A stretch of DNA of 64,000 bases from an uncultured Gammaproteobacteria bacterium (GTDB lineage Bacteria > Patescibacteriota > Patescibacteriia > Magasanikbacterales > UBA922). The translations under genes and the position numbers were made by a program. Of the stretch, positions 1 to 23,526 are shown piece by piece. Each line of letters starts with the position of its first letter. The stretch's first letter is position 1. The notes beneath the pieces are model-generated. The model saw only the letters and a program-made list of their open reading frames with translations, did not search any database and was not told the DNA's origin. Location: the NCBI GenBank assembly GCA_964394405.1, contig CAYMVY010000001.1, positions 494,633-558,632 of the forward strand, written 5' to 3'.

Positions 1-13
1 GGCCCTCGCGGCC

Positions 14-1768
14 ATGGCGTTCTTCTACCTCGGCGGATGCGAGAGCGTCCCGCCGGAGGCGAGCAACAACAGCAACAACACCTTCACGGTGGCAAACAAC
101 GTCGACATGGATGGTGACGGTGTCGTGGAAGGTGGCGTTCCCGGTGGGGACGTCACCCTCGTGATCCGCCAGACCTGCGAGACGGCTCCGAACGAGGGAA
201 CCGAGGAGCTCTGCTTCTCGACCTTGAGCGGTGCCCTGCGCGGGACCGGCGACTGCGATGGCTACCCGAACGACGATCCGGCCGTGTGCTTCGACGGCGG
301 GCTCGACTGCTCGCAGACGAAGTACAGCGTCTGTGCGCTCTGCATCCACCCCGCGGGCGTCGGCATCAATGCCGCGACCGAGGTGTGCGATGGCGTCGAC
401 AACGACTGCGACGCGCAGGTCGACGAAGGGTTGATCTGCATCACGAGCTGCGACGACGGCGACGCGTGCACGTTCGACGGGACGCCCACGGTGAACGGGT
501 GCCCCGAGAAGACGGCCGTGCCCGGGTGCTGCCACTACGACGAGACTTCTGACACGGACGACAACGAGTGCCCGGCGACTCACGAGTGCGTGGAGAACAA
601 CACCTGCGCCCCCGTGACCTGCCAGCCGACCAACGCCTGCTTCACCGCGGCGGTGGTCAACCACGACTGCGTCCAGACCGCCAAGCCGGTCGACGACGCG
701 AACGCGTGCACCACCGACGCCTGCAATACGGCGACCGGTGCGATCACGCATACGGCACTCGCAACGATTGACGACAGCAACGCGTGTACCGTGGACGCGT
801 GCAATACGGCCACCGGCGCCGTCACGCACACCCCGGTCGCGATCGACGACATGAACTCGTGCACGACGGACGCCTGCAACACGACGAGCGGCGCCATCAC
901 CCACACCAAGATCCTGGGCTGCGCTGCCCAGTGCAATGTGGAGCACGACAACGACGGTGAGGCCACGAGCGATTGTGCGCCCTACCGCGACCCGCAGCTC
1001 TCCAACCTCTACGGCTGGGGCTGCTGGCCGACCACCATCACCACCGACCCCAACAACATGGGCACCTGCGTCGCCTACGAGGACCAGGACAACGACGAGT
1101 TCGTCGACGTGCCGGAGCGCTTCTGCGCCGATGGTATCGACGGTGATCTCGACGGCAAGACCGACGGGGCCGACAGCGACTGCCCGGTCTGCACCAACGT
1201 CGACCAGTGCGACGATGGTGACCCGTGCACGACCGATTCCTGCAGCGCCAACCTGTGCGTCTGGACGGTCATCGCGGGCTGCATCGAGTGTCAGACGAAC
1301 GCGCAGTGCCCGCTCGGGAAGACGTGCGGCGAGGACAACACCTGCCACACGACCACCCCCCCGACCACGTGCTCGCCCTCGAACCCGTGCCCGTCCGGCT
1401 ACTACTGCGCGGATGGGGTCGCCCAGTGCTTCGTCTTCGCCGACCAGCGCGGCAACACGTCGTCCTACGAATCCGGCCTCGACAGCAAGCCGGACACCAC
1501 CCCCGACAACTTCGACAACGACGGCGATGGATTCTGCGAGACGGCGCCCTGCGTCGGCTCGCTCGATCCGCGTCTCACGGTCTCGGGGTTGCAGGGTGGT
1601 GACTGCGATGACAACCCGGCTGGCCCCGGGACCTTCGTCATCAGCTGGACCGATGCCGGCGGCGTCTCCCGCTCGTTCACGACCGATGGTTCCTACAACA
1701 ACCGTCCGGGCGCGATCGACTGGGCCGACAACTACGACAACGCGTGCAAGGGCCACCCGTTCCTGTGA
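14..1768 (+). CDS. Secreted, possibly lipidated Cys/Asp-rich repeat protein. It has three tandem ~28-aa repeats (DDxNxCTxDACNTxTGAxTHT), Myxococcus-type cysteine-rich repeats (CDDGDPCTTDSC) and a TEVCDGVDNDCDAQVDEG motif (MopE-like putative metal-binding). The 5' end may be cut by the window edge.
   Basis: The ORF runs without stops from the window edge. An LGGC lipobox-like sequence lies only 8 aa from the first Met, so the true start is probably upstream. Cys spacing is strongly periodic and GC3 is very high (GAC, AAC, TGC, GGC codons), unlike the rest of the window. The C-terminal ~90 aa share motifs with the C-terminus of the 3990..6008 protein (DGDxxCETAPC, GGDCDD, DGSYxNxPG, DxNYDNxC). 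Confidence 0.6.
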   Translation: MAFFYLGGCESVPPEASNNSNNTFTVANNVDMDGDGVVEGGVPGGDVTLVIRQTCETAPNEGTEELCFSTLSGALRGTGDCDGYPNDDPAVCFDGGLDCSQTKYSVCALCIHPAGVGINAATEVCDGVDNDCDAQVDEGLICITSCDDGDACTFDGTPTVNGCPEKTAVPGCCHYDETSDTDDNECPATHECVENNTCAPVTCQPTNACFTAAVVNHDCVQTAKPVDDANACTTDACNTATGAITHTALATIDDSNACTVDACNTATGAVTHTPVAIDDMNSCTTDACNTTSGAITHTKILGCAAQCNVEHDNDGEATSDCAPYRDPQLSNLYGWGCWPTTITTDPNNMGTCVAYEDQDNDEFVDVPERFCADGIDGDLDGKTDGADSDCPVCTNVDQCDDGDPCTTDSCSANLCVWTVIAGCIECQTNAQCPLGKTCGEDNTCHTTTPPTTCSPSNPCPSGYYCADGVAQCFVFADQRGNTSSYESGLDSKPDTTPDNFDNDGDGFCETAPCVGSLDPRLTVSGLQGGDCDDNPAGPGTFVISWTDAGGVSRSFTTDGSYNNRPGAIDWADNYDNACKGHPFL

Positions 1769-2023
1769 ACGTGGTAAGGCGCATGTAGCGTCTTAACAAC
1801 AAGCGGAAGTTCCGCATTACATATCTGAACTCGTCATGCGGCACGAGAACAGATCACGGATCTGGTCGAAGGATCAGAACACAACTAGCCGCACCAAGGA
1901 GAAATATAGAAGGGAGAGAAGACAAGTATGATCTCGGCAGCAATGCCCCGATCGTCGAGTCTCTCTCCCGGTCTCAATTCTATTCCTCATCATGATGATG
2001 GGGGAGAGATAGAGAAGAAATTC

Positions 2024-2043
2024 AAAACTCAAAGTTCAAAACG
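2024..2043 (-). repeat. Third, solitary copy of the 20-bp end motif of the four-helix-bundle cassette (CGTTTTGAACTTTGAGTTTT).
   Basis: It is the exact 20-bp reverse complement of 11693-11712. It is also present with one mismatch at 6242-6260. Confidence 0.6.
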
Positions 2044-2437
2044 CAAAAGTAAAAAGAAAAATTTCTGAAATGTAGATAATAGATTTCAGATTCCAACATA
2101 TCTTTATCAAGTAAGACTGAACACTCAAAGTAATACATATTAGTGAGATACGCGTGAAGTTGTATTGGTAGAGAGATGTTGGAAACAAAGTAAAAAGAAG
2201 AGAAAAAAGAAAATACAAAACTCAATGCCGGTGGTAATGATAAGGCGGAAAGTAAATTACAATTCAATACACACCGCGTGGAATACGCGCGGGGAGAAAG
2301 CTCGCGCCTTGCGAGTTTTTTCAATAAACCGTAGAATGTACCCTTGCTAGTGCAATCAAAAACTTCTACTACCACGGGAATATAGGGAACTGTATGTCAG
2401 TGGCGGGAGAGGTTTCGGAAAAAATCTCACTGCACAG

Positions 2438-3613
2438 ATGGAGCAACTCATGCCATTTCGCGTCCTTTTGATTTCGTTCGCCCTGCTCTTCGGAGCGTGC
2501 GATAATACGATCGCGGGCTCTGTCCGCCAGATCGACCACACCACTCCCACCATCCTGAATATCGCGGACACGATCGAGCATAATACCTCGGTCGAAGACG
2601 CGGAGGATACCCACGTCCACATGGACGAGACCTCGGAAGACACGCGTGTCGAGGAAACTCAAGACACGGTCTCGACCGCAGAGACTGAGGTTGTGACTGA
2701 CACGATTGTCCCGGACACTGCTCCGGAGACGATCGAGGAAGTCGATAGTACAGACGACACCATCAATACAGAGGACACGGTCACCGTGGACACACGGGAT
2801 ACCCTGTCTCAGCCCGAGGTCACTCTAGCCGAGTGCACCCTCGACGCCGACTGCGTTGATGAAGACGAGCTGTGTTTCGAGGGCGAGTGTGTGACTGCGC
2901 ATGCTCTCTGCATGGCACACACCTCTGACCACATCTACCCTGAGCTCGAACTCTGCTGTGTCAAACAGCATCCGGTGTCTCAGGGAGAGGGACTCTGCTC
3001 CTACAGCATGGTCACGGATGAAATAGTGTTCTACTCATGTGTCGAACAAGGGACGAGCCTCGTAATCGAGGAAGTCTCGTGCGTCGATCACGACGAGGAC
3101 ACGAGTGATTCGTGTGATCAGTCGTCTGGGTGTGAAAACACCCCGATCGATTCAGACGACGACCTGTTCTATGACTCAGAGGACGACTGCCCCTTCGAAG
3201 CAGAGGTCTACGACTTCTACGACGACTGGGATGGCTGTCCCGAGGATGACCAGGACCACGACGGCTGGGCCCCACCAGAAGACTGCGACGACGACTCGAC
3301 CATAGACGGGCCTCTGGCCACGTACTGCGAGGACGAGTTCGGCTTCTACGTGATGATCAACACGTACGTCGACGACCTGTTCTACCCAGACTGTCTCGAG
3401 GACTCGTCACTGATCTTCCTGACCGATGGGTCGTTCTTCAATGGAGCGCACATCGCGGGCCAGGACTACCCGGGCGATGAGTTCGACAACGACTGCGACG
3501 GCCAGGCTGATGAAGCAGGTGAGACCGGGCTTATCGACTGCTGGTGGTACGAACTCGGTGAGTTCGTCTCACTGGTCGAGTGCCTGTGGATGACCGAGGA
3601 ATTGGCGGATTAG
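2438..3613 (+). CDS. Acidic secreted lipoprotein. It has a signal peptide with an LFGAC lipobox-like cysteine, a long Thr/Asp/Glu-rich linker, Cys-rich modules, thrombospondin-type-3-like Asp-rich calcium-binding motifs (DDDLFYDSEDDCPF, DDWDGCPEDDQDHDGW) and a GDEFDNDCDGQADE motif.
   Basis: The ORF is complete. GC3-rich codon usage contrasts with the AT-rich flanks, and the signal peptide is followed directly by Cys. Confidence 0.55.
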   Translation: MEQLMPFRVLLISFALLFGACDNTIAGSVRQIDHTTPTILNIADTIEHNTSVEDAEDTHVHMDETSEDTRVEETQDTVSTAETEVVTDTIVPDTAPETIEEVDSTDDTINTEDTVTVDTRDTLSQPEVTLAECTLDADCVDEDELCFEGECVTAHALCMAHTSDHIYPELELCCVKQHPVSQGEGLCSYSMVTDEIVFYSCVEQGTSLVIEEVSCVDHDEDTSDSCDQSSGCENTPIDSDDDLFYDSEDDCPFEAEVYDFYDDWDGCPEDDQDHDGWAPPEDCDDDSTIDGPLATYCEDEFGFYVMINTYVDDLFYPDCLEDSSLIFLTDGSFFNGAHIAGQDYPGDEFDNDCDGQADEAGETGLIDCWWYELGEFVSLVECLWMTEELAD

Positions 3614-3989
3614 CCCGCCCTATCCTCCACTTCGTGGGTGGGTCAGTGCATGCAATGGTTCGTAATTACGATGAGCCTGTATGTTCTTGACCCACCCGCG
3701 ACTACACAACTCCCTGTTGACTAATAGAGGTTTATATGTTACTGTTTGCAGTTGCGTAAGGAAATTCGCATCTTGTACGTCTTATAGCGGCGTGTAGTAT
3801 GCGGCGCTTGACTTAGGTCGAGCCCAAGGTTCTTTTACATATAGTGTTTTGTGAAAATTTGTATAGTCAAGAAACGGTGGATGTGTTTGTGCTCTCAACA
3901 AAGGCACGAATGCACCCCCGTTTCTTGACTGCGGTAGGTTCCGCAGCACAAGGATGGGTTCACGGCACATTCCCAGGAGGGAAACCGCC

Positions 3990-6008
3990 ATCATGTTGCT
4001 TCTGAAGAAGATCCACGAACGCTCCATCATCTTGATGGGGGTGTTCGCCCTGCTCGTGGGGTTCACGAGCGCCTGCATCGATGACGGGTCGCGAGACCCG
4101 GTCGGGTTCACCCAGGGTGCCAGTAACGACGGCGACAACGACGGCGTGCCGGACAACCCGGACAACTGCCCCGGGGTCTACAACCCGGGTCAGGAGAACA
4201 ACGACGGCGACTACGAGCCGTACGATGGGCAGATGGGCGACGCCTGCGACGACGACGACGACAACGACGGCGTCGAGGACGTCGACGACAACTGCCAGTT
4301 CGTCTGGAACGAAGACCAGCTGAACACCGACTGGGAGCTCTCCGAGGAGGAGAACTCGACGGTGGTCGGCGACAACATGGGCGACGCATGCGACGACGAC
4401 GACGACAACGACGACGTCTGCGACATGGGGGTCATGCTCTACAACGCGGACGTGTTGCCGAAGTCGGAGTGCGAGGGCTGGGACAACTGCCAGTTCACGT
4501 ACAACCCCGACCAGGAGAACCTGGACCAGGACTACTGGGGCGACGCCTGCGACGATGACGGCGACTGGGACGGTGTCTTCAATGACGAGGACAACTGCCC
4601 CGAGACCCAGAACCGATTCCAGGAAGACCTCGATCAGGACGGTATGGGCGACGCCTGCGATCCAGACGACGACAACGACGGCGCCTGCGATCCTCACCAT
4701 GAGGCGCGGCTCCCCTCGGCTCCGTGGCTTGAGGAATCACCGGATCAGTGCGAGGGCTGGGACAACTGCCCCGACCTCGAAAACCCTGATCAGTCTGATT
4801 GGGATGGCGACGGCAAGGGGGACTGGTGCGACGGCGATTGCCGTGGTGATGGGTTCTTCGAGGCCTACTACCCCGAGGACTTCCCGAACCTCTACTGCGA
4901 CGGCGACGACAACTGCACCCTCGACTCCGAGGAGTGCGACGACGAGAACAACTGCACCCTCGACTACTGGTGCAGCGATGGTGAAGGCGGCGAGTGCACG
5001 CACGAGAAGGACTACGAGAAGGGGGAGTGCATCGAGTGGTGCAACAACAGCGGACAGGGGCAGTGCAACGATCACGACCCCTGCACCGATGACGACTGCG
5101 AGGGCAACACGTGCGAGCATCAGCTCGACATCACCAACCTGGGCTGCGAGGAGCCGGGGTGCGACAACAACAACGACTGCGAGGACAACAACCCCTGCAC
5201 GGACGACGTCTGCAACCAGGAGACCGGCCAGTGCAGTCACAACAACGACAACACGAACGTCTGCGCCGACGCCGACCTCTGTGACGGCACCGAGACCTGC
5301 GTCTCGGGCGTCTGCACGGATCAGGAGGACCTCGTCTGCAACGACAGCAACCCCTGCACCGACGACACGTGCGTCCCGGCCACGGGTTGCTCCTACAGCA
5401 ACGACAACACGAACGTCTGCGCCGACGCCGACCTCTGTGACGGCACCGAGACCTGCGTCTCGGGCGTCTGCACGGATCAGGAGGACCTCGTCTGCAACGA
5501 CAGCAACCCCTGCACCGACGACACGTGCGTCCCGGCCACGGGTTGCTCCTACAGCAACGACAACACGAATGTGTGTACGGACGGCAACTCCTGCACAACC
5601 GACACCTGCTCGAGCGGTCAGTGCGTGGGCACGCCGATCCAGGAGTGTGGCGTCGTGGATCTCCACGGCGACACCCCGCCTGGTGTGGGTGGTGGAAACG
5701 GCGGACCGAATGCGGACGGAACCGATGACGCGAAGGATGACGACGGCGACTGCTATTGCGAGACCGCGCCGTGCACGTCCTCGGTGAACTCGACTTGCGG
5801 GCCCCTCCTCGGAGGCGACTGCGACGATGATCCGGACGACTCGGCCATGACGGTGAGGAATCCGGGTCCGAATCAGTTCTCGTCGGACGGCAGCTACTAC
5901 AACAACCCGGGTACGGACGGTCAGCAACCGAACGGGAACGAGTGGTGGGACGACAACTACGACAACGACTGCGACAACGTGGTCGACGACGGGTTCCCCG
6001 CGAACTGA
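3990..6008 (+). CDS. Secreted, likely lipoprotein, with N-terminal thrombospondin type-3 (TSP3) calcium-binding repeats followed by multiple Myxococcus-type cysteine-rich repeats. The C-terminal domain is shared with the 14..1768 protein.
   Basis: The TSP3 consensus DxDxDGxxDxxDNCPxxxNxxQxDxDxDGxGDxCD is matched several times (DNDGVPDNPDNCPGVYNPGQENNDGDYEPYDGQMGDACDDDDDNDGVEDVDDNCQF...). Repeated NPCTDDxC / CxDGxExC modules follow. The start at 3990 is preferred because a signal peptide (MLLLKKIHERSIILMGVFALLVGFTSAC) sits behind an AGGAGG ribosome-binding site; the alternative ATG is 3954. GC3 is very high. Confidence 0.65.
   Translation: MMLLLKKIHERSIILMGVFALLVGFTSACIDDGSRDPVGFTQGASNDGDNDGVPDNPDNCPGVYNPGQENNDGDYEPYDGQMGDACDDDDDNDGVEDVDDNCQFVWNEDQLNTDWELSEEENSTVVGDNMGDACDDDDDNDDVCDMGVMLYNADVLPKSECEGWDNCQFTYNPDQENLDQDYWGDACDDDGDWDGVFNDEDNCPETQNRFQEDLDQDGMGDACDPDDDNDGACDPHHEARLPSAPWLEESPDQCEGWDNCPDLENPDQSDWDGDGKGDWCDGDCRGDGFFEAYYPEDFPNLYCDGDDNCTLDSEECDDENNCTLDYWCSDGEGGECTHEKDYEKGECIEWCNNSGQGQCNDHDPCTDDDCEGNTCEHQLDITNLGCEEPGCDNNNDCEDNNPCTDDVCNQETGQCSHNNDNTNVCADADLCDGTETCVSGVCTDQEDLVCNDSNPCTDDTCVPATGCSYSNDNTNVCADADLCDGTETCVSGVCTDQEDLVCNDSNPCTDDTCVPATGCSYSNDNTNVCTDGNSCTTDTCSSGQCVGTPIQECGVVDLHGDTPPGVGGGNGGPNADGTDDAKDDDGDCYCETAPCTSSVNSTCGPLLGGDCDDDPDDSAMTVRNPGPNQFSSDGSYYNNPGTDGQQPNGNEWWDDNYDNDCDNVVDDGFPAN
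5244..5555 (+). repeat. Perfect in-frame 156-bp tandem duplication (2 copies) inside the 3990..6008 CDS. It encodes NDNTNVCADADLCDGTETCVSGVCTDQEDLVCNDSNPCTDDTCVPATGCSYS twice and is followed by a diverged partial third unit.
   Basis: Direct comparison shows 5244-5399 identical to 5400-5555. The third unit diverges from about 5569 (GAATGTGTGTACGG against GAACGTCTGCGCCG). Confidence 0.9.
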
Positions 6009-6177
6009 ACGCCGGTCACGAGCCGGATACGAAAAGGGTATAGCTGAGCCCTGAACACGGAACGAGCCAGGTGGCTCGAACAGCAACCCGGGAGTGGGGC
6101 GGCGCAATTCATGCGCTGCCTCCTCCCGACTTCTACAGTGTTCTCATGTATATGAGAGTAGTGAAGAAGTTACAATA

Positions 6178-6214
6178 AAAAAACATCCTATCATGCATCG
6201 GGATGTTTTTTAAA
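6178..6214. terminator. Bidirectional rho-independent terminator between the converging genes 3990..6008 (+) and 6425..7876 (-).
   Basis: AAAAAAACATCC-loop-GGATGTTTTTT: a 6-7 bp stem with an A-run on one side and a T-run on the other. Confidence 0.6.
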
Positions 6215-6221
6215 TTGAAAA

Positions 6222-6392
6222 AATTAGTATAACTCAAAACGTAAAACTCAAAGTTCAAAATTATAACTCAAATCTCAAAACTTTTTTCAAATCATTTTTT
6301 GAATCTAGTTTAGTCATAATCCCTCCCTGATTAAGTTTTAAATTTTACGTTATAGTTTTACGTTTTGACATTTGAGTTTTGAGTTATGCTAA
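6222..6392 (-). mobile_element. MITE-like, internally deleted, inverted copy of the four-helix-bundle gene cassette found at 11236..11722. It has ~18-bp terminal inverted repeats (ATTAGTATAACTCAAAAC ... GTTTTGAGTTATGCTAAT) and retains the promoter/RBS, the first 9 codons and the last few codons of the cargo gene.
   Basis: The reverse complement of 6290-6395 matches 11236-11344 with 2 mismatches. The reverse complement of 6222-6289 matches the 3' end and downstream flank of the gene (11670-11712). About 325 bp of ORF interior is missing, with the junction at GATTTGAAA|AAAGTTTTGAG. Confidence 0.8.
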
Positions 6393-6424
6393 TCTTCCCC
6401 TCCTTTTACTTTTTATTTTGCAAA

Positions 6425-7876
6425 TTACAAATCCTTCTCCGAATTTCTAATAAAATTAAACGTTTCTTTCTTCTCTCGATACAACACGCCAAACATAGCA
6501 CCCCACCACACCCACGTCATCCACATGACCGGTGTATGATGAAGCATGTTGTCGCCAAGACTCATGACACCAAAAGCAATAATCCAGCCCAGGAGATGTA
6601 TCGAGAGCGCGTGCGTTCCCATCCACACCTGGTCGAGATAAAATTTTCCTGCATTCCATACGAGTAACCACAGGAAGAGGAGATAGGTGAAAAGACCAAT
6701 CGTACCAAGCTCAATTGCAAATCGGAGATAATCATTGTGTGATTCAGTACTGTCGTCCCGGATATGTAGAGGGCTCTGTTCGTTTTCCCATACACGGGGG
6801 AAACTACCGTACCCGTATCCATACCACGGCCGCGCGAGAAATATAGGCACTGACTCAGAGATCAGATTTTGTCGCCATGAAATAGAGTCAGCTTCCTCAT
6901 CACGTGTAGTCAATCGTTGAATGAGCTGAATCCGCTCGAGATTGAAGTTGGTATATTTTTCGAGTACCTGATTGAGTGGGGAAAATATGAGGTAGAGTAT
7001 GAGCGTACCGAGTGCCAATATTCCCAAAAATTTTCTGAATTTTGCGAGACCAATCACTACGAGAAAAATGCCGAGTCCCACCCATGCACCACGAGTGAAG
7101 GTACAGGCAAGGAGAATCAAGAGAAAGAGGGTAATCAGATGTGCATATAATTTTTTGCGTGTGAGATAGAATGTTCGATCAATATATGCATGGTGAATAT
7201 GAATGAAGAGAAGAGAGACAATAAAAAAAGCAAATACATTGGGATGCGCAAAGGTGCCAAAAATGCGATCGCGGATATCAAAGGTGGTAATTCCTTTACC
7301 AAAAAATAATTGGAATATGCCAAATGCAATTGGGATAATACTCCCAACTACAATTGAAAGCGTGAGTTCGCGGAGACTGATATATTTTTTTCCAATAAAA
7401 ATGAATCCGAGAACAAAGAGGATGATAAGCACGAGGAATTTGACGCTCTCGAGTGCAGTCTCCATGGGAACAATGCTGACCATAGTACTCCCGAACATGA
7501 GTACGAGGAGGAGCATTGCAATTTTTAGTCCAGGAATTCGGTATGATCGTTGCAAGTGTGTCGCGAGCATGAATATTCCCCATAGCGCGATAATCATCGA
7601 GAATCCGGCATTGATATTCATCTGAACGCCTGCAACTCCTCCGAGTGACACATCTCGCCAAGTATCGAGAGTGGGGCGGAGTGCCAGGAAAACAAGTAAT
7701 AATTTTTCTCGCAAAAATATATGCCCAAAATACAATAGAGCGATCATGAGAAGTATGAGATCGATTTCGATAATCGGATTCACGAGTATGACCAGAAGAA
7801 AAATCACAGCGACAATCGAGTGGACTCGATTGCGTTGTGGTAGGGAAGACTGCATTGTTTTGAAATATTGGTACAT
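6425..7876 (-). CDS. O-antigen ligase / Wzy_C family polytopic membrane protein (WaaL-like).
   Basis: It has about 10 transmembrane segments and the characteristic periplasmic-loop motifs TRGAW ... GYGYGSF ... ESHNDYLRFAIELGTIGL (the HN-x-YL-x4-E-x-G signature). Confidence 0.8.
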   Translation of the reverse strand: MYQYFKTMQSSLPQRNRVHSIVAVIFLLVILVNPIIEIDLILLMIALLYFGHIFLREKLLLVFLALRPTLDTWRDVSLGGVAGVQMNINAGFSMIIALWGIFMLATHLQRSYRIPGLKIAMLLLVLMFGSTMVSIVPMETALESVKFLVLIILFVLGFIFIGKKYISLRELTLSIVVGSIIPIAFGIFQLFFGKGITTFDIRDRIFGTFAHPNVFAFFIVSLLFIHIHHAYIDRTFYLTRKKLYAHLITLFLLILLACTFTRGAWVGLGIFLVVIGLAKFRKFLGILALGTLILYLIFSPLNQVLEKYTNFNLERIQLIQRLTTRDEEADSISWRQNLISESVPIFLARPWYGYGYGSFPRVWENEQSPLHIRDDSTESHNDYLRFAIELGTIGLFTYLLFLWLLVWNAGKFYLDQVWMGTHALSIHLLGWIIAFGVMSLGDNMLHHTPVMWMTWVWWGAMFGVLYREKKETFNFIRNSEKDL

Positions 7877-7930
7877 GGTATACTACTGCACGAATACACA
7901 CGTGTGTAGTATATCCTACTTTTCCAACAG

Positions 7931-9166
7931 ATGACAATTCTTCAGGCACACAAATATTATTGGCCCCGCGATGGCGCATCCAATTACATGCTTTCACTCT
8001 CGAAATTACTTGAAGAGAGAGGTGAAACCGTAATTCCCTTTGCGATGCAGGGCAGAGAGAATCTTCCAACACCATATGGAGAATTTTTTGTACCAGAAAT
8101 GAATCTGAGAGATCCTGAAAAAGCGAATGTAGGGGAAAAAATACGCTACACACTCCGCATGTTCTATTCGATCGAAGCAAAAAAAAGAATGCGGAAATTA
8201 TTGGACACACATCCCGTGGATATTGCGCATATTCACAATATTTATCATCATATTTCACCTTCGATTTTATCAGAACTCAAGCGACGAAAAATTCCGATTG
8301 TGATGACGCTTCATGATTACAAATTGTTGGCGCCAAATTACACCATGTTTCATCATGGCGCAGTACACGAAGAAGACGCGCGCGGATGGTATCTCTCCTG
8401 TGTCAAGAATAAATGTATGAAAGATTCTCGTGCGCAGAGCGCGATTGTGGTTGCAGAGATGATTTGGCATCACAAAATTATGAAATATTATGAGCGCTAT
8501 GTAGACACCTTTATCGCGCCAAGCAGATTTATGAGAGATATCTGTATAAAATTTGGATGGGATGAACAGAAGTTTGTTCATATTCCACATCCTGCATTTG
8601 TTGAGTCCAAGCATCATGTCTCAAAAAAGGATAAAGAGTACGTGGCATATGTAGGTAGGTTATCAGAAGAAAAAGGTCTTCTCGTGCTACTGCGAGCTGC
8701 AAGCTACACCCCAGAGATCCCCTATGTGATTGTAGGCGAGGGTCCTCTTGAGAATAGAATGAGAGGAATGATTGCGAGTCGTAAGCTGAAGAATGTGTGG
8801 TGTGTGGGGTTCAAAACCGGCGCTGAATTGGAAACAATTATTAGCGAAGCACGAGTGTTGGTGCTCCCCTCAATCTGGTACGAGAATTATCCACTAAGCA
8901 TTCTCGAGGCAAAGGCTGCAGGAAATATTGTTATTGGAAGTAATATTGGGGGTATAGGAGAAATGCTCCCGCCTGAACTGGTAGTAGAAGCAGGGAATGA
9001 AGAAATGCTCGCGCATACTATACAGGAGTGGTATCACAAAAAAGCAAGTGAAAGAAAAAAAATGGGAGCACAGTTGCAAGAGGAAGTGAAAAAAGAAAAT
9101 GCACCCCTCGCTCATGTGCGCGCAATCGAGAATGTGTACGCGGCACTCACCAAACACACCACATAG
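7931..9166 (+). CDS. GT4 family glycosyltransferase (GT-B fold).
   Basis: The C-terminal GT4 signature is present: EEKGLLVLL ... VLPSIWYENYPLSILEAKAAGNIVIGSNIGGIGE (E-x7-E). Confidence 0.8.
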   Translation: MTILQAHKYYWPRDGASNYMLSLSKLLEERGETVIPFAMQGRENLPTPYGEFFVPEMNLRDPEKANVGEKIRYTLRMFYSIEAKKRMRKLLDTHPVDIAHIHNIYHHISPSILSELKRRKIPIVMTLHDYKLLAPNYTMFHHGAVHEEDARGWYLSCVKNKCMKDSRAQSAIVVAEMIWHHKIMKYYERYVDTFIAPSRFMRDICIKFGWDEQKFVHIPHPAFVESKHHVSKKDKEYVAYVGRLSEEKGLLVLLRAASYTPEIPYVIVGEGPLENRMRGMIASRKLKNVWCVGFKTGAELETIISEARVLVLPSIWYENYPLSILEAKAAGNIVIGSNIGGIGEMLPPELVVEAGNEEMLAHTIQEWYHKKASERKKMGAQLQEEVKKENAPLAHVRAIENVYAALTKHTT

Positions 9167-9180
9167 TGGATTCGTCTGTT

Positions 9181-11205
9181 ATGATTCATACCCTATACAA
9201 AAAATGTATATATCTCGGAGTAGTGCTCATGTTGCTCTCTGGATTGGTGTATCCGCGTAGTGCAGAGGCGTCGATTAATTCGCATACGTCACCGAGAATC
9301 GCAAATTATTTTTTGAAATGGGAGTTGACGGATATAGAAGCGACTGAACTTTCAAAATGGGATGTAGTTATATTGGATATGGAAGTACAATTCCGCAGTG
9401 CAGCAGCTCTCGCAAAATTAAAAAAATTGAATCCAGAAATCGTCCTTCTTGTGTATCTAACCCCCCAAGAAATCGCTACCAATGCAGCCACTGGGTGGAG
9501 TACTGCTAGACGCAAACTCGCTGCAGGAATTCCAGATGAGTGGTATCTCAAAAATAGTAGAGGAGAACGACTCTCCTGGTGGTCAGGAACGTATCTACTC
9601 AATGTGACTGATAGTGCGCCTGAACGCGGAGGAATGAGGCTGAATGAGTACATACCGCGATTTGTAGTGAATGAATTGTTATCTTCTGGATATTGGGACG
9701 GAGTGTATTATGATAATAGCTGGGATACTATTGCCTATTTTGCGGGAAATGATATTGATTTGAATCTCGATCGTTCACCAGATACCGCAACCGAGACCAA
9801 ATGGCAGGAGGGTATGAAAGAATTGTATGCAACGACCCGGAATTTGAGCGGGAGTGATATTATTATTGTGGGGAACAATCACAATACTGCATATCTCTCT
9901 GATCTCAATGGAAAACTACTCGAAAATTTTCCGAACGGTAATTGGGTGTCGACCATGAATACATTGAGAGCATTTTCGACTAGTCGAGCGGTGGTACCTC
10001 GTGTACCAATAGTCAATGCAAATACGGCAAATACCGGAATCCCTGATTATCGCTCCATGCGATATGGTTTGACCTCAGCACTCCTCGAGAATGCATATTT
10101 TGCCTATGACCACGGGGATCAGGATCATGGACAGACATGGTGGTACGATGAATACGAGGTATCGCTCGGGAATCCGATAACTGTAGCGCAATCACAGACC
10201 GGCAAGACTGAGTATGCGCCAGACGTGTGGTCGCGTAATTTTGAAAATGGAATTTCGATTGTGAATAGTACCAATGAGGCGCGTACCATTCCGCTTGACG
10301 GAGAGTATGAGCATATTCATGGTGTCCAGGACACGGCAGTGAATGATGGATCCATTGTCTCAGAAGTCACCCTTGCGCCAAAAGATGGACTCATATTATT
10401 GAAAACATTCGAGACACTGAAGAATGTCATTTTTACCAATGGTTTTTTTGCGCGATTTTTCAAGCCCACCGGTGAACGAGCACGCAATGGATTATTTGTT
10501 TTTGAAGAAGAGCAGAAAGGTGGCGCACAAATTGCGCATATTGATTTGAATTTTAATAATCAAGAAGATTTGGTCGTGGTGAGTGGTAACAAGATTCAGG
10601 GATGGAGAGATGATGGACAAATTTTGTTTAAGATTTACCCCTATGGTGCCAACTATACGGGATCGCTACATGTCGCGGTAGGTGATCTTGATAATGATGG
10701 CTTCTATGAAATATACAGTGCTCCGAGCGCTGGTTTTCGAGAACCCATTCGAAGGTATGATAGAAATGGAGCGACTATTGGAGGAGATCTTTTCCCCTAT
10801 GGTTCAGCATACAAAGGTGGATACCATATGGCCCTAACCAAAGCATCGGAGGCAGCTCCTGCGCGACTGATTGTGGGATCAGGGGTGGGGGTGAGACCAA
10901 CGATCACCGTCTATGGTCCTGACTTCAAAAAATTACTCGCCTTTAGCGCATTTGAATCTACATTCATGGGCGGGGTAAGTGTTGCTGCGGGAGATGTCGA
11001 GGGAGATGGAACACAGGAAATTATTGCAGGGAAAGGAAGTAATGGAGCGCCTACGGTAAAAGTATTTACCCTTCAGGGAAAAGAAAAATATCAATCCTTC
11101 AATGCGTATACTACGATGTTTAAACCTGGTATTGAAGTTCGTACATTGGATATTGATTTTGATGGGAAAGATGAGATTGTGACCCTATCGGATGGAGCGT
11201 TATAA
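9181..11205 (+). CDS. Secreted protein. The N-terminal domain is a putative TIM-barrel glycoside-hydrolase-like domain (GH114/GHL-type; low certainty). The C-terminal domain is an FG-GAP/VCBS-like beta-propeller.
   Basis: A signal peptide is present. The C-terminus has repeated GDLDNDGFYE and GDVEGDGTQEII motifs typical of FG-GAP repeats. The N-terminal WDVVILDME region resembles the polysaccharide-hydrolase-like families. An alternative GTG start lies at 9166. Confidence 0.5.
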   Translation: MIHTLYKKCIYLGVVLMLLSGLVYPRSAEASINSHTSPRIANYFLKWELTDIEATELSKWDVVILDMEVQFRSAAALAKLKKLNPEIVLLVYLTPQEIATNAATGWSTARRKLAAGIPDEWYLKNSRGERLSWWSGTYLLNVTDSAPERGGMRLNEYIPRFVVNELLSSGYWDGVYYDNSWDTIAYFAGNDIDLNLDRSPDTATETKWQEGMKELYATTRNLSGSDIIIVGNNHNTAYLSDLNGKLLENFPNGNWVSTMNTLRAFSTSRAVVPRVPIVNANTANTGIPDYRSMRYGLTSALLENAYFAYDHGDQDHGQTWWYDEYEVSLGNPITVAQSQTGKTEYAPDVWSRNFENGISIVNSTNEARTIPLDGEYEHIHGVQDTAVNDGSIVSEVTLAPKDGLILLKTFETLKNVIFTNGFFARFFKPTGERARNGLFVFEEEQKGGAQIAHIDLNFNNQEDLVVVSGNKIQGWRDDGQILFKIYPYGANYTGSLHVAVGDLDNDGFYEIYSAPSAGFREPIRRYDRNGATIGGDLFPYGSAYKGGYHMALTKASEAAPARLIVGSGVGVRPTITVYGPDFKKLLAFSAFESTFMGGVSVAAGDVEGDGTQEIIAGKGSNGAPTVKVFTLQGKEKYQSFNAYTTMFKPGIEVRTLDIDFDGKDEIVTLSDGAL

Positions 11206-11235
11206 AGTAAAAAGTAAAAGGGAAAAAGGTAAAAG

Positions 11236-11722
11236 ATTAGTATAACTCAAAACTCAAATGTCAAAACGTAAAACTATAACGTAAAATTTAAAACTTAATC
11301 AGGGAGGGATTATGGCTAAACTAGATTCAAAAAATGATTTGAAAGTACGTGCGTATTTTCTATCAATACAGACCATACGTTTTTTAGAGATAGTGCCTGA
11401 AAAACGTGTGTATTGGACAATTGGAGATCAGCTACTTAGATCAGTAACGTCAATTGGGGCAAATATTGTCGAAGCAAAATCATCAGCCTCACGAAAAGAG
11501 TTTATCAAGTTCTATCAAATTTCCCTTAAGTCAGCGAATGAGAGTAAATACTGGCTCGGATTATTACGTGATACTACAAATATGGATAAAGACTTAGACA
11601 ATAACATACTGAATGAGGTTGTAGAAGTTGCAAATATGCTTGGATCAAGTATCATTACCATGAAGAATAAAAAGTTTTGAGATTTGAGTTATCGTTTTGA
11701 ACTTTGAGTTTTAAGTTTTGAG
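11236..11722 (+). mobile_element. Small terminal-inverted-repeat-bounded cassette carrying a four-helix-bundle protein gene. It is the full-length counterpart of the MITE-like element at 6222..6392.
   Basis: The left terminal inverted repeat ATTAGTATAACTCAAAAC (11236-11253) is identical to the element end at 6222. Both ends are built from degenerate ACTCAAA / GTTCAAAACG units. The right end (…CGTTTTGAACTTTGAGTTTTAAGTTTTGAG) is a partly degenerate inverted copy. Confidence 0.65.
11312..11680 (+). CDS. Four-helix-bundle protein (TIGR02436 / 23S rRNA intervening-sequence protein family, PF05635).
   Basis: The family signature is present: GDQLLRSVTSIGANIVEA ... SRKEFIKFYQISLKSANESKYWLGLL. The protein is 122 aa and is preceded by a strong RBS (AGGGAGGG). 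Confidence 0.8.
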   Translation: MAKLDSKNDLKVRAYFLSIQTIRFLEIVPEKRVYWTIGDQLLRSVTSIGANIVEAKSSASRKEFIKFYQISLKSANESKYWLGLLRDTTNMDKDLDNNILNEVVEVANMLGSSIITMKNKKF

Positions 11723-11732
11723 ATGGGTCTCT

Positions 11733-13580
11733 ATGCAATACGTTGAAAAGCATCTAACCAAACACCATTTATTGAACGCTCCCCACAAGTGGTTTTTCGC
11801 GTTCTTAGCATCGCCCATACATTTTGCTGAAATGCACTATAAGAATCGATATCATCTGCAGTTTTCTCATGCACGGAAATTATTTTTGTTCGACATGTCT
11901 CTCCTCGCGACACTGGCTGTGATTGCTGGAGCATTCTTATTCTGGAGTACCTATAATCCCACAGTGACAGATCTGGTATATCTCACGGTCACTCCTTCGC
12001 AATCAAGAATTTTGAGTGGAGAGTATGTGACATACACCGTAGGATATGAGAATAAAAGTGATGTGCGACTTTCGAATGCATCCATAACTCTAGACATTCC
12101 TGAAGGATTTATTCTTGATAAAACCGAGCCTGCGACATTTGATCGCTCAAATAATACGATGAAACTCGGTTCAATTGGTTCAGGGGAAAAGGGGAGTGTC
12201 TCGATCTCAGGCTGGTTCTATGGAACACCAGAAGTAGAAGATCATATCCATGCGCATATTAACTATGCCCAAGAAGGGAAAACGCGTACTGAGAATAAAA
12301 TGAGCCCGCATATCATATTTTTACGTGGGTCATTATTGGAGTCTTCGGTTGAATTGCAGGAACAGATTATCGAAAATTCACGCATTCCATTCACAATAAC
12401 GTTAGTCAATAATGGTTCGGAGCCTCTGCTCAATATTGTATTTGATCTAAGTCCAGTCAATACAATTGGAGTACTAGAGAGTGTGACAACTACGAGAGGA
12501 TTGGTGAATGGTGGAATGTGGAATTTATCAGGTCTGCTTCCTGATGAGTCTGTAGAGCTCGAGGGAATCATTGTGATTAGAGGAGGGTTGGGAGAAAATA
12601 CGTATTCGATAAAATTAGCACCAGCACTCTCAATTCGTGGCAAGACAATCACCCAATCAACGGTAACAAAATCTGTACAAGTCGCACGTCCAGAAGCTCG
12701 GGTTAGTGCTCGATGGGATAATGATTCCGCCATGTTAAAACCTAGCGAAACTGGTAGGTTGACTGCGACGATTACCAATACCGGGTCAATCACACTCGAA
12801 CAGGGAGTGATTGAAATTCCGCTTCCCAAAACAATTGTAAATCTGCAGGAGGCTGCGAGAGTGAATGCAGGGACAGTGAGTCAAAATACACTGATTCTTT
12901 CTTCCGCAAAACACCCAGCACTTAATTCGATCTCTCCGGGAGAGTCCCGAACAATTGCACTATTGGTTCCTATTCTTGCAATACCTGATGGGGGAACCGA
13001 CACTGTGCTCCAACCAACAGTTCGCTTCCATGCAGGAGTCGCGATTGATCCAAATACAAGGGTTGAGGCTACAGGGAAAACAGGGCAGCTCAAAGTAGGG
13101 ACACAGGTAGTCTTTACTGGAGAAATTCGGTACTATACTGCCGAGGGCGATCAGCTCGGGCGAGGACCGCTACCTCCACAGGTTGGAAAAGAGACCAAGT
13201 ACGCCGCCCTATTTTCGATTCGCAATACCACGAGCAATGTTACGGGGGGAATACTCAGCGTAAAACTTGGAAGCCGTGCAGTGTGGACGGGTAAGACGAG
13301 CGTTAGTCAGGGGTCTGCTCCTACCTATAACCCCTCGACCCGTATAGTACGGTGGAATGTGGGAACCATTCCAGCGCATGCGACAGTAGGTCTATTTTTT
13401 GAAGTTGGACTGACTCCAGAGGACGAAGAAGTGGGGACCACGCCAGTATTGGTGCTAAGCGCGGAAATTACTGGTACAGATGCCTATCTAGGGTATATGG
13501 TGAGCCGTTCGATAGGCGCTCTTGACACCTCCCTCGGCACAGATCTGATTGGGAGGACAAAAGGGGTGACTGTACGTTGA
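11733..13580 (+). CDS. Membrane-anchored surface protein with repeated DUF11-type (conserved repeat domain) beta-sandwich domains.
   Basis: An N-terminal transmembrane helix (SLLATLAVIAGAFLFW) is followed by repeated motifs such as TITNTGS and TLVNNGSEPL. The start is uncertain: the track uses TTG at 11718, and ATGs lie at 11733 and 11835. Confidence 0.55.
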   Translation: MQYVEKHLTKHHLLNAPHKWFFAFLASPIHFAEMHYKNRYHLQFSHARKLFLFDMSLLATLAVIAGAFLFWSTYNPTVTDLVYLTVTPSQSRILSGEYVTYTVGYENKSDVRLSNASITLDIPEGFILDKTEPATFDRSNNTMKLGSIGSGEKGSVSISGWFYGTPEVEDHIHAHINYAQEGKTRTENKMSPHIIFLRGSLLESSVELQEQIIENSRIPFTITLVNNGSEPLLNIVFDLSPVNTIGVLESVTTTRGLVNGGMWNLSGLLPDESVELEGIIVIRGGLGENTYSIKLAPALSIRGKTITQSTVTKSVQVARPEARVSARWDNDSAMLKPSETGRLTATITNTGSITLEQGVIEIPLPKTIVNLQEAARVNAGTVSQNTLILSSAKHPALNSISPGESRTIALLVPILAIPDGGTDTVLQPTVRFHAGVAIDPNTRVEATGKTGQLKVGTQVVFTGEIRYYTAEGDQLGRGPLPPQVGKETKYAALFSIRNTTSNVTGGILSVKLGSRAVWTGKTSVSQGSAPTYNPSTRIVRWNVGTIPAHATVGLFFEVGLTPEDEEVGTTPVLVLSAEITGTDAYLGYMVSRSIGALDTSLGTDLIGRTKGVTVR

Positions 13581-13605
13581 TAGAAAATGTATAAAGAATA
13601 TATGC

Positions 13606-13634
13606 AAAAAATCGCTTATTTTAGCGATTTTTTG
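13606..13634. terminator. Rho-independent terminator after the DUF11 protein gene.
   Basis: AAAAAATCGCT-TATTTT-AGCGATTTTTT: a 9-bp stem flanked by an A-run and a T-run. Confidence 0.65.
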
Positions 13635-13659
13635 CTGGATTTTTCAATGCTTTCTTCAC

Positions 13660-13688
13660 TTGACAATATACTCCATCTGTGCTATACT
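13660..13688 (+). promoter_or_regulatory. Consensus sigma70-type promoter (TTGACA-17-TATACT) about 150 nt upstream of the GT4 gene at 13837.
   Basis: TTGACA lies at 13660-13665 and TATACT at 13683-13688, with 17-nt spacing. Confidence 0.45.
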
Positions 13689-13836
13689 GAGCCGTTTACT
13701 AGTGATTGACAGATTCTCTGCTTACTCCCAGTATATGGGCACGGTGTTGACTCTATTTGCTTTATACTGATAAGGTTAAGTAATGGTTTAATTAGTTATT
13801 GCATTTTACCCAGATTTATTTAATTTAACGCATCAT

Positions 13837-15012: not shown

Positions 15013-15166
15013 AAATATAAATAACAAAAACGACCCTCCAAGAAGAACACATGTAGGGTCGTTTTTTGTTACAAAAAAACCGCATAATGCGGAAATAAAT
15101 TAGAGGACGAGAGGTACGAGAGAGTGCGCTTCGCGTATGCGAATACCACACTCTCTCGTCCATGCC

Positions 15167-15886
15167 TCACGGGTCGTCGCAACCTTCGAGTTCGGTCTTG
15201 GCGACGTAGAGGAGCTCTGGGCATCGTGCAGGATCTTGGCTCGGTACGATCGAGTACGTCAGGCGATCGAGGAACTGCCACGTGGTCACGTTTTTGAAGA
15301 GCGTGACACAGCCGTTCCCGTATCCGTACGACGGATCACGAGGATCTCGAAGTTCGATCCAGTATCCGCTCTCGCACAGTTCTCCGAGAGGGAGCCACTC
15401 GGAATAGGGTATGACCCCAGTCTTCTCCCATGGCTCGCGTCCGAAGATGATGGTTATCTCCTCGCCATCGTGCAGATGTGCTGGGGGAGGTGAGCCATCG
15501 TAGCCAGAAAGTACGTAGATGAGGACGTCGCGACTGACGCACTGTCCGTCAGGAGTACAGTCCTTGCCACTGGCGCAGTGCCAGTCTTCGGTGCACGGGA
15601 GTGTTTCTGTGAACACCTCTTCCGTCGGTATGGTAGTGTCTTCGACCGCAGTGTCATCGAGTGTGATGTCTGCATCGGGAACGTCTGCGAGATCGGTAGG
15701 GATGTAGGGGTGCTCGACCATGTCAGCCCATTTCTCGGTGATGATGGTCACAGGAACCTGTGCATCACTCGAGGAGGTGGCGTCACTATCGCTCCATACA
15801 TCTTGCTCCATTCTCACGACGATAGTGATATCGTCGTAGTCGCAGGCGATGATGAGGAAGGCCAGGGGAATGAACAAACGCTTCAT
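15167..15886 (-). CDS. Cys-containing secreted lipoprotein of unknown function; the fourth GC3-rich gene.
   Basis: A GGAGG RBS lies 8 nt upstream of the ATG at 15886. The signal peptide MKRLFIPLAFLIIAC has an IIAC lipobox. Cys-rich C-terminal motifs follow (CTEDWHCASGKDCTPDGQCV). GC3 is high, unlike the neighbouring genes. Confidence 0.55.
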   Translation of the reverse strand: MKRLFIPLAFLIIACDYDDITIVVRMEQDVWSDSDATSSSDAQVPVTIITEKWADMVEHPYIPTDLADVPDADITLDDTAVEDTTIPTEEVFTETLPCTEDWHCASGKDCTPDGQCVSRDVLIYVLSGYDGSPPPAHLHDGEEITIIFGREPWEKTGVIPYSEWLPLGELCESGYWIELRDPRDPSYGYGNGCVTLFKNVTTWQFLDRLTYSIVPSQDPARCPELLYVAKTELEGCDDP

Positions 15887-17302: not shown

Positions 17303-17323
17303 TAACGCTACCACTCTGAAAAT

Positions 17324-22623: not shown

Positions 22624-22663
22624 TCGAACTCTTGAAAAGAGTGATTGGTAAGTCATTACAGAC

Positions 22664-23502: not shown

Positions 23503-23526
23503 TTTACTTATATCTTACACTCCGTT

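Follow-up and report, generated by a model that had tools for sequence, protein, structure and literature searches.

Four GC-rich genes in a 64-kb stretch of chromosomal DNA (the whole stretch analysed, here called the window) appear to belong to a resident, hypervariable class of adhesin-type genes, which would be held GC-rich by a force that fixes G and C and is probably linked to recombination. We give this reading a probability of about one half. The genes form islands within a cell-envelope polysaccharide locus of a bacterium of the Patescibacteria (CPR). The window contains a glycosyltransferase/Wzy locus, and the best named matches of its native AsnB protein are from Patescibacteria, this one protein being the basis of the taxonomy.

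The four genes stand apart from their surroundings in base composition. Gene 1 (the open reading frame at 14-1768) has a GC content of 0.66 and a GC3 of 0.90; the corresponding values are 0.57 and 0.73 for gene 2 (2438-3613), 0.63 and 0.88 for gene 3 (3954/3990-6008), and 0.55 and 0.64 for gene 4 (15167-15886, minus strand). The 42 native open reading frames of the window have a GC3 of only 0.30-0.46 (mean 0.356, standard deviation 0.034), giving z-scores of 16, 11, 16 and 8 for genes 1 to 4, and the overall GC of 0.55-0.66 compares with a background of about 0.40. The preliminary description had noted four GC-rich genes amid neighbours with AT-ending codons, and this is borne out; the GC3 of 80-85% given there holds for genes 1 and 3 but overstates that of genes 2 and 4. 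All codon classes show the bias (two-fold Y-ending, two-fold R-ending and four-fold), and GC-rich DNA extends 130-200 nt beyond the stop codons of island genes, with abrupt changes of composition at the junctions between GC-rich and AT-rich DNA. The shift of every codon class and the GC-rich UTR-like flanks point to an effect at the level of DNA and not of codons.

What do these genes encode? A hydrophobic leader followed by a lipobox-like ...[GAS]C can be read from all four translations, the lipoboxes ending in YLGGC, LLFGAC, GFTSAC and LIIAC in genes 1 to 4. A regular expression matched three of the four; it could not match gene 1 because this gene has no Met inside the window. With a leader and a lipobox carrying the invariant cysteine, all four proteins are predicted bacterial lipoproteins. 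Cysteine makes up 9.0, 5.4, 9.0 and 3.8% of the proteins of genes 1 to 4, and Asp and Glu together 16-26%, in keeping with the earlier account of signal-peptide or lipobox proteins full of cysteines and acidic residues.

The four putative lipoproteins differ in their modules. Gene 1 (1-1768, plus strand; …FFYLGGC) is cut at its 5' end by the start of the window, and its frame is open from base 2, reading ...ALAAMAFFYLGGC; it combines a MopE-like motif, four CTDC repeats (with tandem units of 78 nt each at 690-907) and, at the C-terminus, a Cys/Asp module. Its orthologue in the related locus L085 has the same N- and C-terminal parts, while the middle consists of cbEGF modules. In gene 2 (plus strand; …ALLFGAC), an acidic Thr/Asp/Glu linker is accompanied by a Cys-knot start (CTLDADCVDEDELCFEGECV) and, at the C-terminus, by a DNDCDG motif. 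Gene 3 (plus strand; …GFTSAC) carries TSP type-3 repeats, CTDC repeats with an internal tandem duplication (5239-5550; 156 nt, 99% identical), and a C-terminal Cys/Asp module, ending in a C-terminus that is acidic and not hydrophobic. Gene 4 (…FLIIAC) lies between a native GT4 gene and a native HTH gene; its acidic linker and Cys-knot start (CTEDWHCASGKDCTPDGQCV) are accompanied by a domain with no recognised fold, and the AlphaFold model of its protein (pLDDT 30) gives its function no structural support.

Profile searches agree with part of this assignment. Pfam PF00526 (Dicty_CTDC; gathering threshold 27 bits) matches four stretches each in gene 1 (65.3 bits) and gene 3 (38.5 bits), scores below threshold in gene 2 (16.2 bits) and has no match in gene 4. 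PF02412 (TSP_3; threshold 25 bits) matches three stretches of gene 3 (48.3 bits) and none of genes 1, 2 and 4. PF11617 (MopE) reaches 22.4 bits in gene 1 against a threshold of 27 bits, which is exceeded in the relatives L087 (62 bits) and L085 (32 bits), and DNDCD-type strings can be found by eye in genes 2 and 3. To judge from this domain content, the four proteins would be membrane-anchored surface lipoproteins built from disulfide-rich, Ca2+-binding modules (TSP3, CTDC and MopE-like, with cbEGF in relatives), whose most likely role is that of adhesins or matrix proteins on the CPR cell surface; the surface, calcium-binding and adhesin-type character proposed previously is one with which we agree.

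The DNA between the genes is mixed. The spacer between genes 1 and 2 (1769-2437) has a GC-rich tail (about 0.5) to roughly 1990 and an AT-rich core at 2001-2200 (0.29-0.33), so that the intergenic DNA is AT-rich, as had been stated, in this core, but not over the spacer as a whole (0.42) or in the spacer between genes 2 and 3 (3614-3989; 0.49). The remnant of the local dispersed repeat reported between the GC-rich genes is real: it lies at 2019-2064, with 83% complementarity to 6340-6385, and a 17-mer, AAACTCAAAGTTCAAAA, occurs seven times against 0.5 expected. The same spacer holds a terminator-like hairpin (about 2290-2325) and a promoter-like site (2309-2337). The leader of gene 3 contains a long hairpin with near-perfect pairing (3865-3930, plus strand; z = -5.1) that is kept in the related strain L001, as are GC-rich hairpins (6053 to 6130) in the 3' tail of the gene (6009-6211, plus strand; z = -4.6). 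The terminators described earlier can be recognised as terminator-like hairpins with T-runs after gene 3 (6178-6211, plus strand, AT-rich) and downstream of gene 4 (15080-15092, minus strand).

Is the class old in this lineage? Among 1.84e9 (1.84 billion) representative proteins, the gene 4 family has exactly two members, gene 4 itself and P0242, which are 47% identical. P0242 is encoded in L083, a locus syntenic with the window, whose native genes are 58-85% identical to their orthologues here (one outlier, 37%) with pS of 0.62-0.84. The pS between gene 4 and P0242 is 0.74, meaning that synonymous sites are saturated, and, counted over identical residues, GC3 is 0.66 and 0.55 in this pair against 0.29-0.40 in native genes. 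L083 also has a second GC-rich gene for a Cys-rich lipoprotein (GC3 0.73) and a CTDC gene (GC3 0.89) in the position of genes 1-3. With the native GT4 gene as anchor, metagenomic relatives that form a sister clade are seen to have the same island on the far side of GHL15/GT4a, and genes for Cys-rich lipoproteins with a high GC3 (0.6-0.9) occupy the corresponding edge of the locus both in the L083 genome and in these relatives. The presence of GC-rich genes of like kind at like sites points to a long-standing class and not to a recent import.

The pattern extends across the clade when the class is defined on protein features alone (at least 4% Cys and at least 150 aa), "class-wide" being meant here for this locus and clade. 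In hosts of low GC3, 16 of 20 class ORFs exceed the host GC3 by at least 0.2. Host GC3 ranges from 0.13 to 0.85 across the clade, and from 0.13 to 0.83 among the loci with a class gene, syntenic high-GC relatives included; the class lies mostly at 0.6-0.9, and regression of class GC3 on host GC3 gives a slope of 0.29 (r 0.26); the composition of the class is uncoupled from that of the genome. It is lower in some lineages (0.57-0.58 in L091, 0.59 in L157 and 0.35 in L097), which slow decay would also produce and which counts against a maintained composition. High GC3 is not intrinsic to such proteins, since TSP3 and Cys-rich proteins in other low-GC genomes have a host-like GC3. In every pair of loci compared, island orthologues are less conserved than native genes, and hence no recent transfer is seen. 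The barrel-like gene of L088 and L091, for example, is 65% identical at the amino acid level (GC3 0.77 and 0.60) against 80% for GT4 (0.24 and 0.20). Genes 1 and 4 and the barrel-like gene behave as orthologues inherited vertically.

The flanks of the window and of L001 are about 98-100% identical and the ends of gene 3 differ with a dS of 0.13-0.17, while its central CTDC block has been replaced, with indels, so that gene 3 is a mosaic between the strains; no copy that could have donated the divergent central part of this gene in L001 is present in the 64-kb window. Between orthologues, CTDC modules have been swapped for cbEGF modules.

We propose that fixed sites of the envelope-polysaccharide locus have long been home to this hypervariable class across a CPR family. 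Its GC richness would not be the fading mark of an import, but would be upheld against the AT-biased mutation of the genome by a force favouring the fixation of G and C. The preferred candidate is GC-biased gene conversion (gBGC), which may be tied to the frequent recombination of these genes; in favour of this are the mosaic structure and the internal tandem duplication of gene 3 and a published link between recombination and GC3 in bacteria (PMC4450053). A calculation from the odds of GC3, with the host as reference, puts the population-scaled strength needed at about 2.7-2.8 in the repeat-rich genes and at about 1.2 in gene 4. The size of the effect counts against gBGC: its published effects in bacteria amount to a few percent of GC3, against 0.3-0.55 here. 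The preliminary description had offered, as an alternative, a class of genes whose codon usage stays aberrant, and this fits the evidence. Ultimately, the class may well have come from a foreign source or from a GC-rich ancestor.

The chief competing account, repeated replacement from GC-rich relatives, is tentative, and we give it clearly less credence. The edges of polysaccharide loci would be hot spots at which cassettes are swapped from GC-rich CPR kin or another GC-rich pool, and the composition would mirror that of the donors, never having had time to ameliorate. Syntenic relatives with a genomic GC of 0.60-0.65 carry Cys-rich lipoproteins of near-native composition at the same locus, and single GC-rich genes for non-secreted proteins in the related loci L118, L120 and L127 show that imports from GC-rich donors occur. 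The turnover of island content between L087 and L086, which are about 85% identical in nucleotide sequence and whose flanks align, suits this account equally well, as do the mosaic structure of gene 3 and the module swaps; genomic islands have also been reported in Patescibacteria (PMC12455944). However, native genes are at least as close between loci as any island gene, genes 1 and 4 and the barrel-like gene behave as if inherited vertically, a close donor copy was found for none of the four genes, and neither an integrase nor a tRNA nor a phage relative is present.

A doubtful alternative is selection acting on codons or on mRNA, in which GC-ending codons or a GC-rich, highly structured mRNA would be favoured for high expression, for slow translation of disulfide-rich proteins or for mRNA stability. 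It is the type of protein that defines the class, the hairpins in the leader and 3' tail of gene 3 are strong and conserved, and the scaled selection needed (about 1-3) is not absurd. Against this, all codon classes shift alike, even the R-ending two-fold class, the non-coding flanks are GC-rich, such proteins use AT-rich codons in other low-GC organisms, and the other secreted proteins of the window have native base composition.

The preliminary description favoured a recent horizontal import of the gene set, not yet ameliorated, from a Myxococcota-like donor of high GC, and this now looks very unlikely. The composition is extreme enough (z = 8-16) for a genomic island, the short flanks are also within the GC-rich DNA, and the CTDC and TSP3 matches come mostly from MAGs of Myxococcota or 'Deltaproteobacteria'. 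But the best matches of gene 3 outside its own lineage are 31-49% identical and confined to the repeats, no close homologue in a candidate donor was found for genes 2-4 as searched, a homology search with genes 2 and 4 as a concatenated query found no relative, and gene 4, which has no match outside the clade among the representative proteins, remains syntenic over saturated divergence. The sites are not empty in relatives: L083 is filled at both, the loci of two sister clades hold the same kind of island, and L001 shares gene 3. Searches for mobility signatures found no integrase or other mobility gene at the island borders, no tRNA in the window and no phage relative. The neighbouring excisionase-type HTH gene has native composition, and a relative with no gene 4 match at its locus conserves it too. 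GC3-rich usage for secreted Cys-rich proteins across the whole genome had been named in advance as an observation that would speak against horizontal acquisition, and such usage is what is seen at the level of the clade. Finally, a contig chimera or contamination that fused GC-rich to AT-rich DNA would account for the abrupt switches of composition but, as judged previously, hardly deserves consideration, given a Logan contig with 100% identity over 14,117 bp (including gene 4, its two neighbours and both junctions), the recurrence of gene 3 in the same flanks in a second sample (L001), the native repeat inside the island spacer and the like architecture of NCBI and JGI contigs from many samples.

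How does this resident class compare with known systems? With genomic or flexible islands, such as those reported in Patescibacteria (PMC12455944), it shares atypical composition, a setting in a glycosyltransferase/Wzy cluster and content that varies among relatives. It differs in being GC-rich instead of AT-rich, in having no mobility genes or tRNA borders, and in that some members are vertical orthologues that stay GC-rich across saturated divergence. The myxobacterial surface proteins with TSP3 and Cys repeats (e.g., the MYXO-CTERM protein MtsC) are likewise secreted and combine Ca-binding TSP type-3 repeats with CTDC-type Cys repeats. Gene 3 scores 92.6 bits with the MtsC model NF047638 of NCBIfam (TSP3 part only) against an equivalog cut-off of 350, and the MYXO-CTERM sorting-signal models give no match at E <= 0.01; here, anchoring would be through a lipobox at the N-terminus, and in a CPR host.

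Bacterial genes that recombine have a higher GC3, independent of codon optimality and extending to adjoining intergenic DNA (the gBGC hypothesis; PMC4450053). The genes described here are similarly mosaic and repeat-rich with GC-rich flanks, but the effect is an order of magnitude larger and limited to one gene class. A further parallel is the vls lipoprotein family of Borrelia, with 49% GC in a genome of about 28.6% (PMC11499132): in both cases, genes for surface lipoproteins are far richer in GC than the AT-rich genome. The proteins are unrelated, and the present feature is chromosomal, lies in a polysaccharide locus and spans a family of genomes. It also has no marked GC skew (-0.08 to +0.06 across the island, against 0.52 in vls), and neither a donor copy nor an array of silent cassettes (in vls promoterless and about 90% identical to the expressed gene) occurs in the 64-kb window. 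In Borrelia, segmental recombination diversifies vlsE and its silent cassettes, and the authors of that study infer that the composition must be maintained (PMC11499132).

Four genes stand apart from the rest of the window in their base composition. GC content reaches 0.62-0.67 at positions 1-2000 and 4001-6000 and 0.52 at 15001-16000, against 0.35-0.47 elsewhere. GC3 is 0.90 in gene 1 (14-1768, plus strand), 0.73 in gene 2 (2438-3613, plus), 0.88 in gene 3 (3954/3990-6008, plus) and 0.64 in gene 4 (ORF 15167-15988, minus, with the ATG at 15886 as its likely start). The remaining 42 ORFs of the window lie between 0.30 and 0.46 (mean 0.356, sd 0.034), and the corresponding z-scores are 16, 11, 16 and 8 for genes 1, 2, 3 and 4, respectively. 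The profile thus confirms the GC-rich gene islands among AT-rich neighbours that were noted in the preliminary description. Among Y-ending two-fold codons, the fraction with C is 0.71-0.89 in the four genes vs 0.26; among R-ending ones, the fraction with G is 0.60-0.93 vs 0.35, and four-fold codons end in G or C at a frequency of 0.58-0.90 vs 0.35. Past the stop codons, GC-rich DNA continues for 130-200 nt and then drops to 0.20-0.33. The window begins inside gene 1, whose reading frame is open up to the edge.

What do these genes encode? All four products are acidic and Cys-rich, and have an N-terminal hydrophobic leader with a lipobox-like cysteine at its end. Pfam searches found Dicty_CTDC in genes 1 and 3 and TSP_3 in gene 3, with a sub-threshold MopE motif in gene 1. 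Neither gene 2 nor gene 4 has a significant Pfam domain. The two share a common plan, in which the lipobox is followed by an acidic linker and a C-x3-D-x-C…G-x-C-V knot; an AlphaFold2 model of gene 4, made from a two-sequence alignment, has a pLDDT of 29.6 and is too poor to use. Judging from their domains, the best reading of the four proteins is that they are surface-anchored adhesins or matrix proteins, rich in disulfides and able to bind Ca2+. They would be Ca-binding, disulfide-rich and hypervariable, and their genes adjoin those for envelope polysaccharides; in this uncultured CPR (Patescibacteria) lineage, they are the most obvious candidates for a role in contact with a host or matrix. 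Gene 3 contains an internal duplication of 156 nt that is 99% identical. Its leader includes a near-perfect hairpin of 66 nt (3865-3930, z = -5.1) and its 3' tail contains strong GC-rich hairpins (6053-6130, z = -4.6); the related strain L001 keeps both better than the synonymous sites of gene 3, and they may have a role in mRNA stability or regulation.

How long have these genes been GC-rich? An exhaustive search of 1.84 billion representatives returned only two proteins for gene 4: P0241, which is identical and comes from an NCBI contig of 596,879 bp, and P0242 (47% identity). An NCBI contig of 92 kb (GCA_052033375.1; locus L083), syntenic with the window at 6.4-25.6 kb, encodes the latter. 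Native orthologues of the two loci are 58-85% identical (with one outlier at 37%) and have pS values of 0.62-0.84, which means that synonymous sites are saturated; for gene 4 and P0242, pS is 0.74. At identical residues, GC3 is 0.66 for gene 4 in the window and 0.55 in L083, vs 0.29-0.40 for native genes. If the gene is older than the split between these loci and had undergone neutral amelioration, host-like GC3 would be expected by now. L083 also carries a GC-rich, Cys-rich lipoprotein gene adjoining gene 4 (GC3 0.73), and a CTDC-repeat gene with a GC3 of 0.89; the end of the latter adjoins the Wzy/GT4 block, the site occupied by genes 1-3 in the window.

A metagenome scan anchored on the native GT4 gene adjoining gene 4 yielded 80 related loci, in which ORFs were called by a simple longest-ORF rule with GC3 periodicity. 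In the closest loci (GT4 59-61% identical, GC about 0.33), an island with a GC of 0.53-0.61 lies beyond GHL15 and GT4a, a position equivalent to that of genes 1-3. The islands of these relatives encode lipoproteins with TSP_3, cbEGF/EGF, MopE and CTDC modules, as well as a beta-barrel-like family and a coiled-coil protein. The gene 1 orthologue in locus L085 shares its N- and C-terminal parts with gene 1, and cbEGF replaces the CTDC repeats. GC3 outliers occur in 20 of 42 low-GC3 loci (35/554 ORFs) and have a mean Cys content of 4.5%, vs 0.97% in other ORFs. The class was then redefined by protein features alone (Cys at least 4%, at least 150 aa) to avoid circularity; in low-GC3 hosts, 16 of 20 such ORFs are at least 0.2 above host GC3, as are all of the long, strongly Cys-rich ones. 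The Cys-rich lipoproteins of syntenic family members with a genomic GC of 0.60-0.65 (L100, L148, L154) are near-native in composition. Across loci bearing class genes, host GC3 ranges from 0.13 to 0.83 and class GC3 follows it weakly (slope 0.29, r 0.26).

Two further observations concern this clade. The same gene order is found from GC 0.27 (GC3 0.13; L094-L097) to GC 0.65 (GC3 0.85; L100, L148, L154), and it appears that genomic GC has shifted by very large amounts within this CPR family. The GC-rich family that looks, from its sequence, like a small beta-barrel protein (L085 16304-16987, L087 12274-13029, L088 14018-14941, L091 17790-18602 and possibly L100 18617-19333) matches no Pfam family; it has a signal peptide and an aromatic C-terminal residue (…LRARF, …GVRFW), comparable to the outer-membrane beta-signal. 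Such an end is odd in a phylum believed to have no outer membrane.

On the best reading, the composition is an old trait of a resident and hypervariable class of genes, held against AT-biased mutation. A more specific proposal is that a localised GC-favouring process (biased conversion or selection), acting on one hypervariable adhesin class of a CPR family, holds GC3 at 0.6-0.9 in genomes ranging from 0.13 to 0.85; this is tentative, and we give it a probability of roughly 0.3. When GC3 is taken as an equilibrium, our own calculation puts the scaled bias required by genes 1 and 3 at ln[(0.9/0.1)(0.65/0.35)] ~ 2.8; the sister clade (0.80 vs 0.21) would need about 2.7, and gene 4 about 1.2. Recombination-linked GC-biased conversion is the favoured, as yet unproven, mechanism by which the class would be kept GC-rich. 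It is favoured because the genes are visibly recombinogenic, because all codon classes and the non-coding flanks are shifted, and because a raised GC3, independent of codon optimality, has been reported for recombining genes in bacteria (PMC4450053). The effect in these islands is far larger than in published cases. Gene 3 of the window and of L001 form a mosaic: the flanks are about 98-100% identical, the ends have a dS of 0.13-0.17, the TSP3 part has a dS of 0.39, and the central CTDC block has been replaced, with indels. No donor copy of the mosaic segment (L001) was found within the 64-kb window.

As the main rival to biased conversion, the islands may have been replaced repeatedly by DNA from GC-rich relatives within the same CPR family. 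This is plausible: GC-rich relatives do exist in the family and island content turns over, varying between genomes that are roughly 85% identical at the nucleotide level. Where an island gene has a counterpart elsewhere, its identity is always lower than that of the native genes of the same locus pair (62-65% vs 73-80%, 40-45% vs 73-79% and 32-34% vs 39-53%); thus, the sampled genomes show no sign of recent transfer between lineages. Codon-level selection is disfavoured, and its tRNA-specific form was rejected because all codon classes shift. The idea that GC-richness is intrinsic to Cys/Asp-rich proteins was also rejected, since in low-GC genomes outside the clade TSP3 or Cys-rich proteins have host-like GC3 (for example L018, with 9.5% Cys and a GC3 of 0.32).

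Recent import from an unrelated high-GC phylum, the reading favoured in the preliminary description with a Myxococcota-like donor, is disfavoured as well: matches outside the clade are at the level of repeats only, and the relative of gene 4 is syntenic, GC-rich and separated by saturated divergence. Gene 3 has one true relative, in L001 (69%), and its remaining matches show 32-56% identity over 16-48% of the query; the few that are named include Myxococcales and Deltaproteobacteria MAGs, plus several other phyla. A genome-contig scan gave no gene 3 orthologue among the matches listed, which were TSP3 repeat matches led by Myxococcota-type MAGs. No relatives of gene 2 were found in metagenome contigs, and exact look-ups in the contig index gave no match for gene 2, gene 4 or P0241. 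A word-indexed protein search with gene 2, gene 4 and Wzy also gave no match; as the query was concatenated, this excludes close homologues and is weak for distant ones. Phage and viral collections returned nothing or MopE-motif matches only, and the island flanks have no tRNA and no integrase. Separately, lone GC3-rich genes (0.72-0.87) are found in low-GC related loci (L118 872-1576, L120 4759-5670, L127 9189-9836). These encode apparently cytoplasmic proteins and look like ordinary imports, showing that GC-rich DNA finds its way into these genomes. In L071 (1-2889), a contig of a low-GC 'Gammaproteobacteria' MAG with a GC3 of about 0.3-0.4, the end has a GC of 0.67-0.70 and a TSP3 match; this is either an island of the same sort in a different phylum or a chimera at the end of the contig.

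A chimera joining GC-rich and AT-rich DNA in the window is disfavoured, as had been argued from the sequence, by a Logan assembly (L084, SRR12404947) that is 100% identical to 11695-25811, including gene 4 and both native neighbours, by L001, a Logan contig from a different run, which has gene 3 with nearly identical flanks, and by the AT-rich spacer between genes 1 and 2, which contains a copy of a repeat otherwise found between native genes (core 17-mer, 7 occurrences vs 0.5 expected). A palindromic AT-rich element of ~200 nt is found at 6218-6419, 11210-11344 and 11669-11722, with a remnant in the island spacer (2019-2064). Inverted copies, 91-94% complementary, flank the Wzy/GT4/GHL15 block (6425-11205), and at the right end a small gene (11312-11680), which encodes a four-helix-bundle protein (TIGR02436), separates the two halves. 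The element could be MITE-like, or a promoter/terminator module.

Apart from the islands, the window is a large locus of glycosyltransferase, Wzy and sugar-modification genes, and Rfam and tRNA scans of it were empty. The host taxonomy is based on the named matches of one protein, the native AsnB, whose relatives are Patescibacteria (Falkowbacteria, Komeilibacteria, Portnoybacteria, Paceibacterota). The Wzy-type polymerase (6425-7876 vs L083 17355-18836) is 28% identical over 61 residues, while its neighbours are 58-70% identical, and its strand relative to them differs between the two loci; this looks like an O-antigen-type cassette replacement. A 1249-residue secreted protein (18874-22623) of native composition, with no Pfam domain, has 37% identity to its L083 orthologue, vs 58-85% for its neighbours, with a conserved N-terminus, and by this comparison evolves much faster than they do. 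Its gene is directly downstream of genes for an ECF sigma factor and an unannotated 391-residue protein; an excisionase-type HTH gene lies just upstream of the sigma factor gene on the opposite strand, and this gene order is kept across much of the clade.

Atypical GC is routinely interpreted as recent horizontal acquisition. Here, vertical orthologues keep it even at saturated divergence, and it persists in a clade with a two-fold range of genomic GC; caution is warranted in composition-based screens of CPR genomes. The class is a test case for non-mutational determinants of bacterial GC, whether biased conversion, selection or gene flow. If the proposal of a localised GC-favouring process is true, this would rank with the largest and most persistent cases of compositional decoupling described within bacterial genomes, and might be linked to the way in which CPR epibionts vary the surface that contacts their hosts.

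Genomic islands have been described in Patescibacteria (PMC12455944); a literature search gave no report of surface-protein islands that are GC-rich and conserved in synteny, nor of such a pattern in CPR, and no paper in which the sample accessions are named. A mechanism of the DGR or vls type was rejected because the islands have no GC skew and, within the window, no cassettes, whereas Borrelia vls has both GC skew and a silent-cassette array. Borrelia vls is the nearest precedent, a surface-lipoprotein family kept GC-rich within an AT-rich genome (49% vs 28.6% G+C; PMC11499132).
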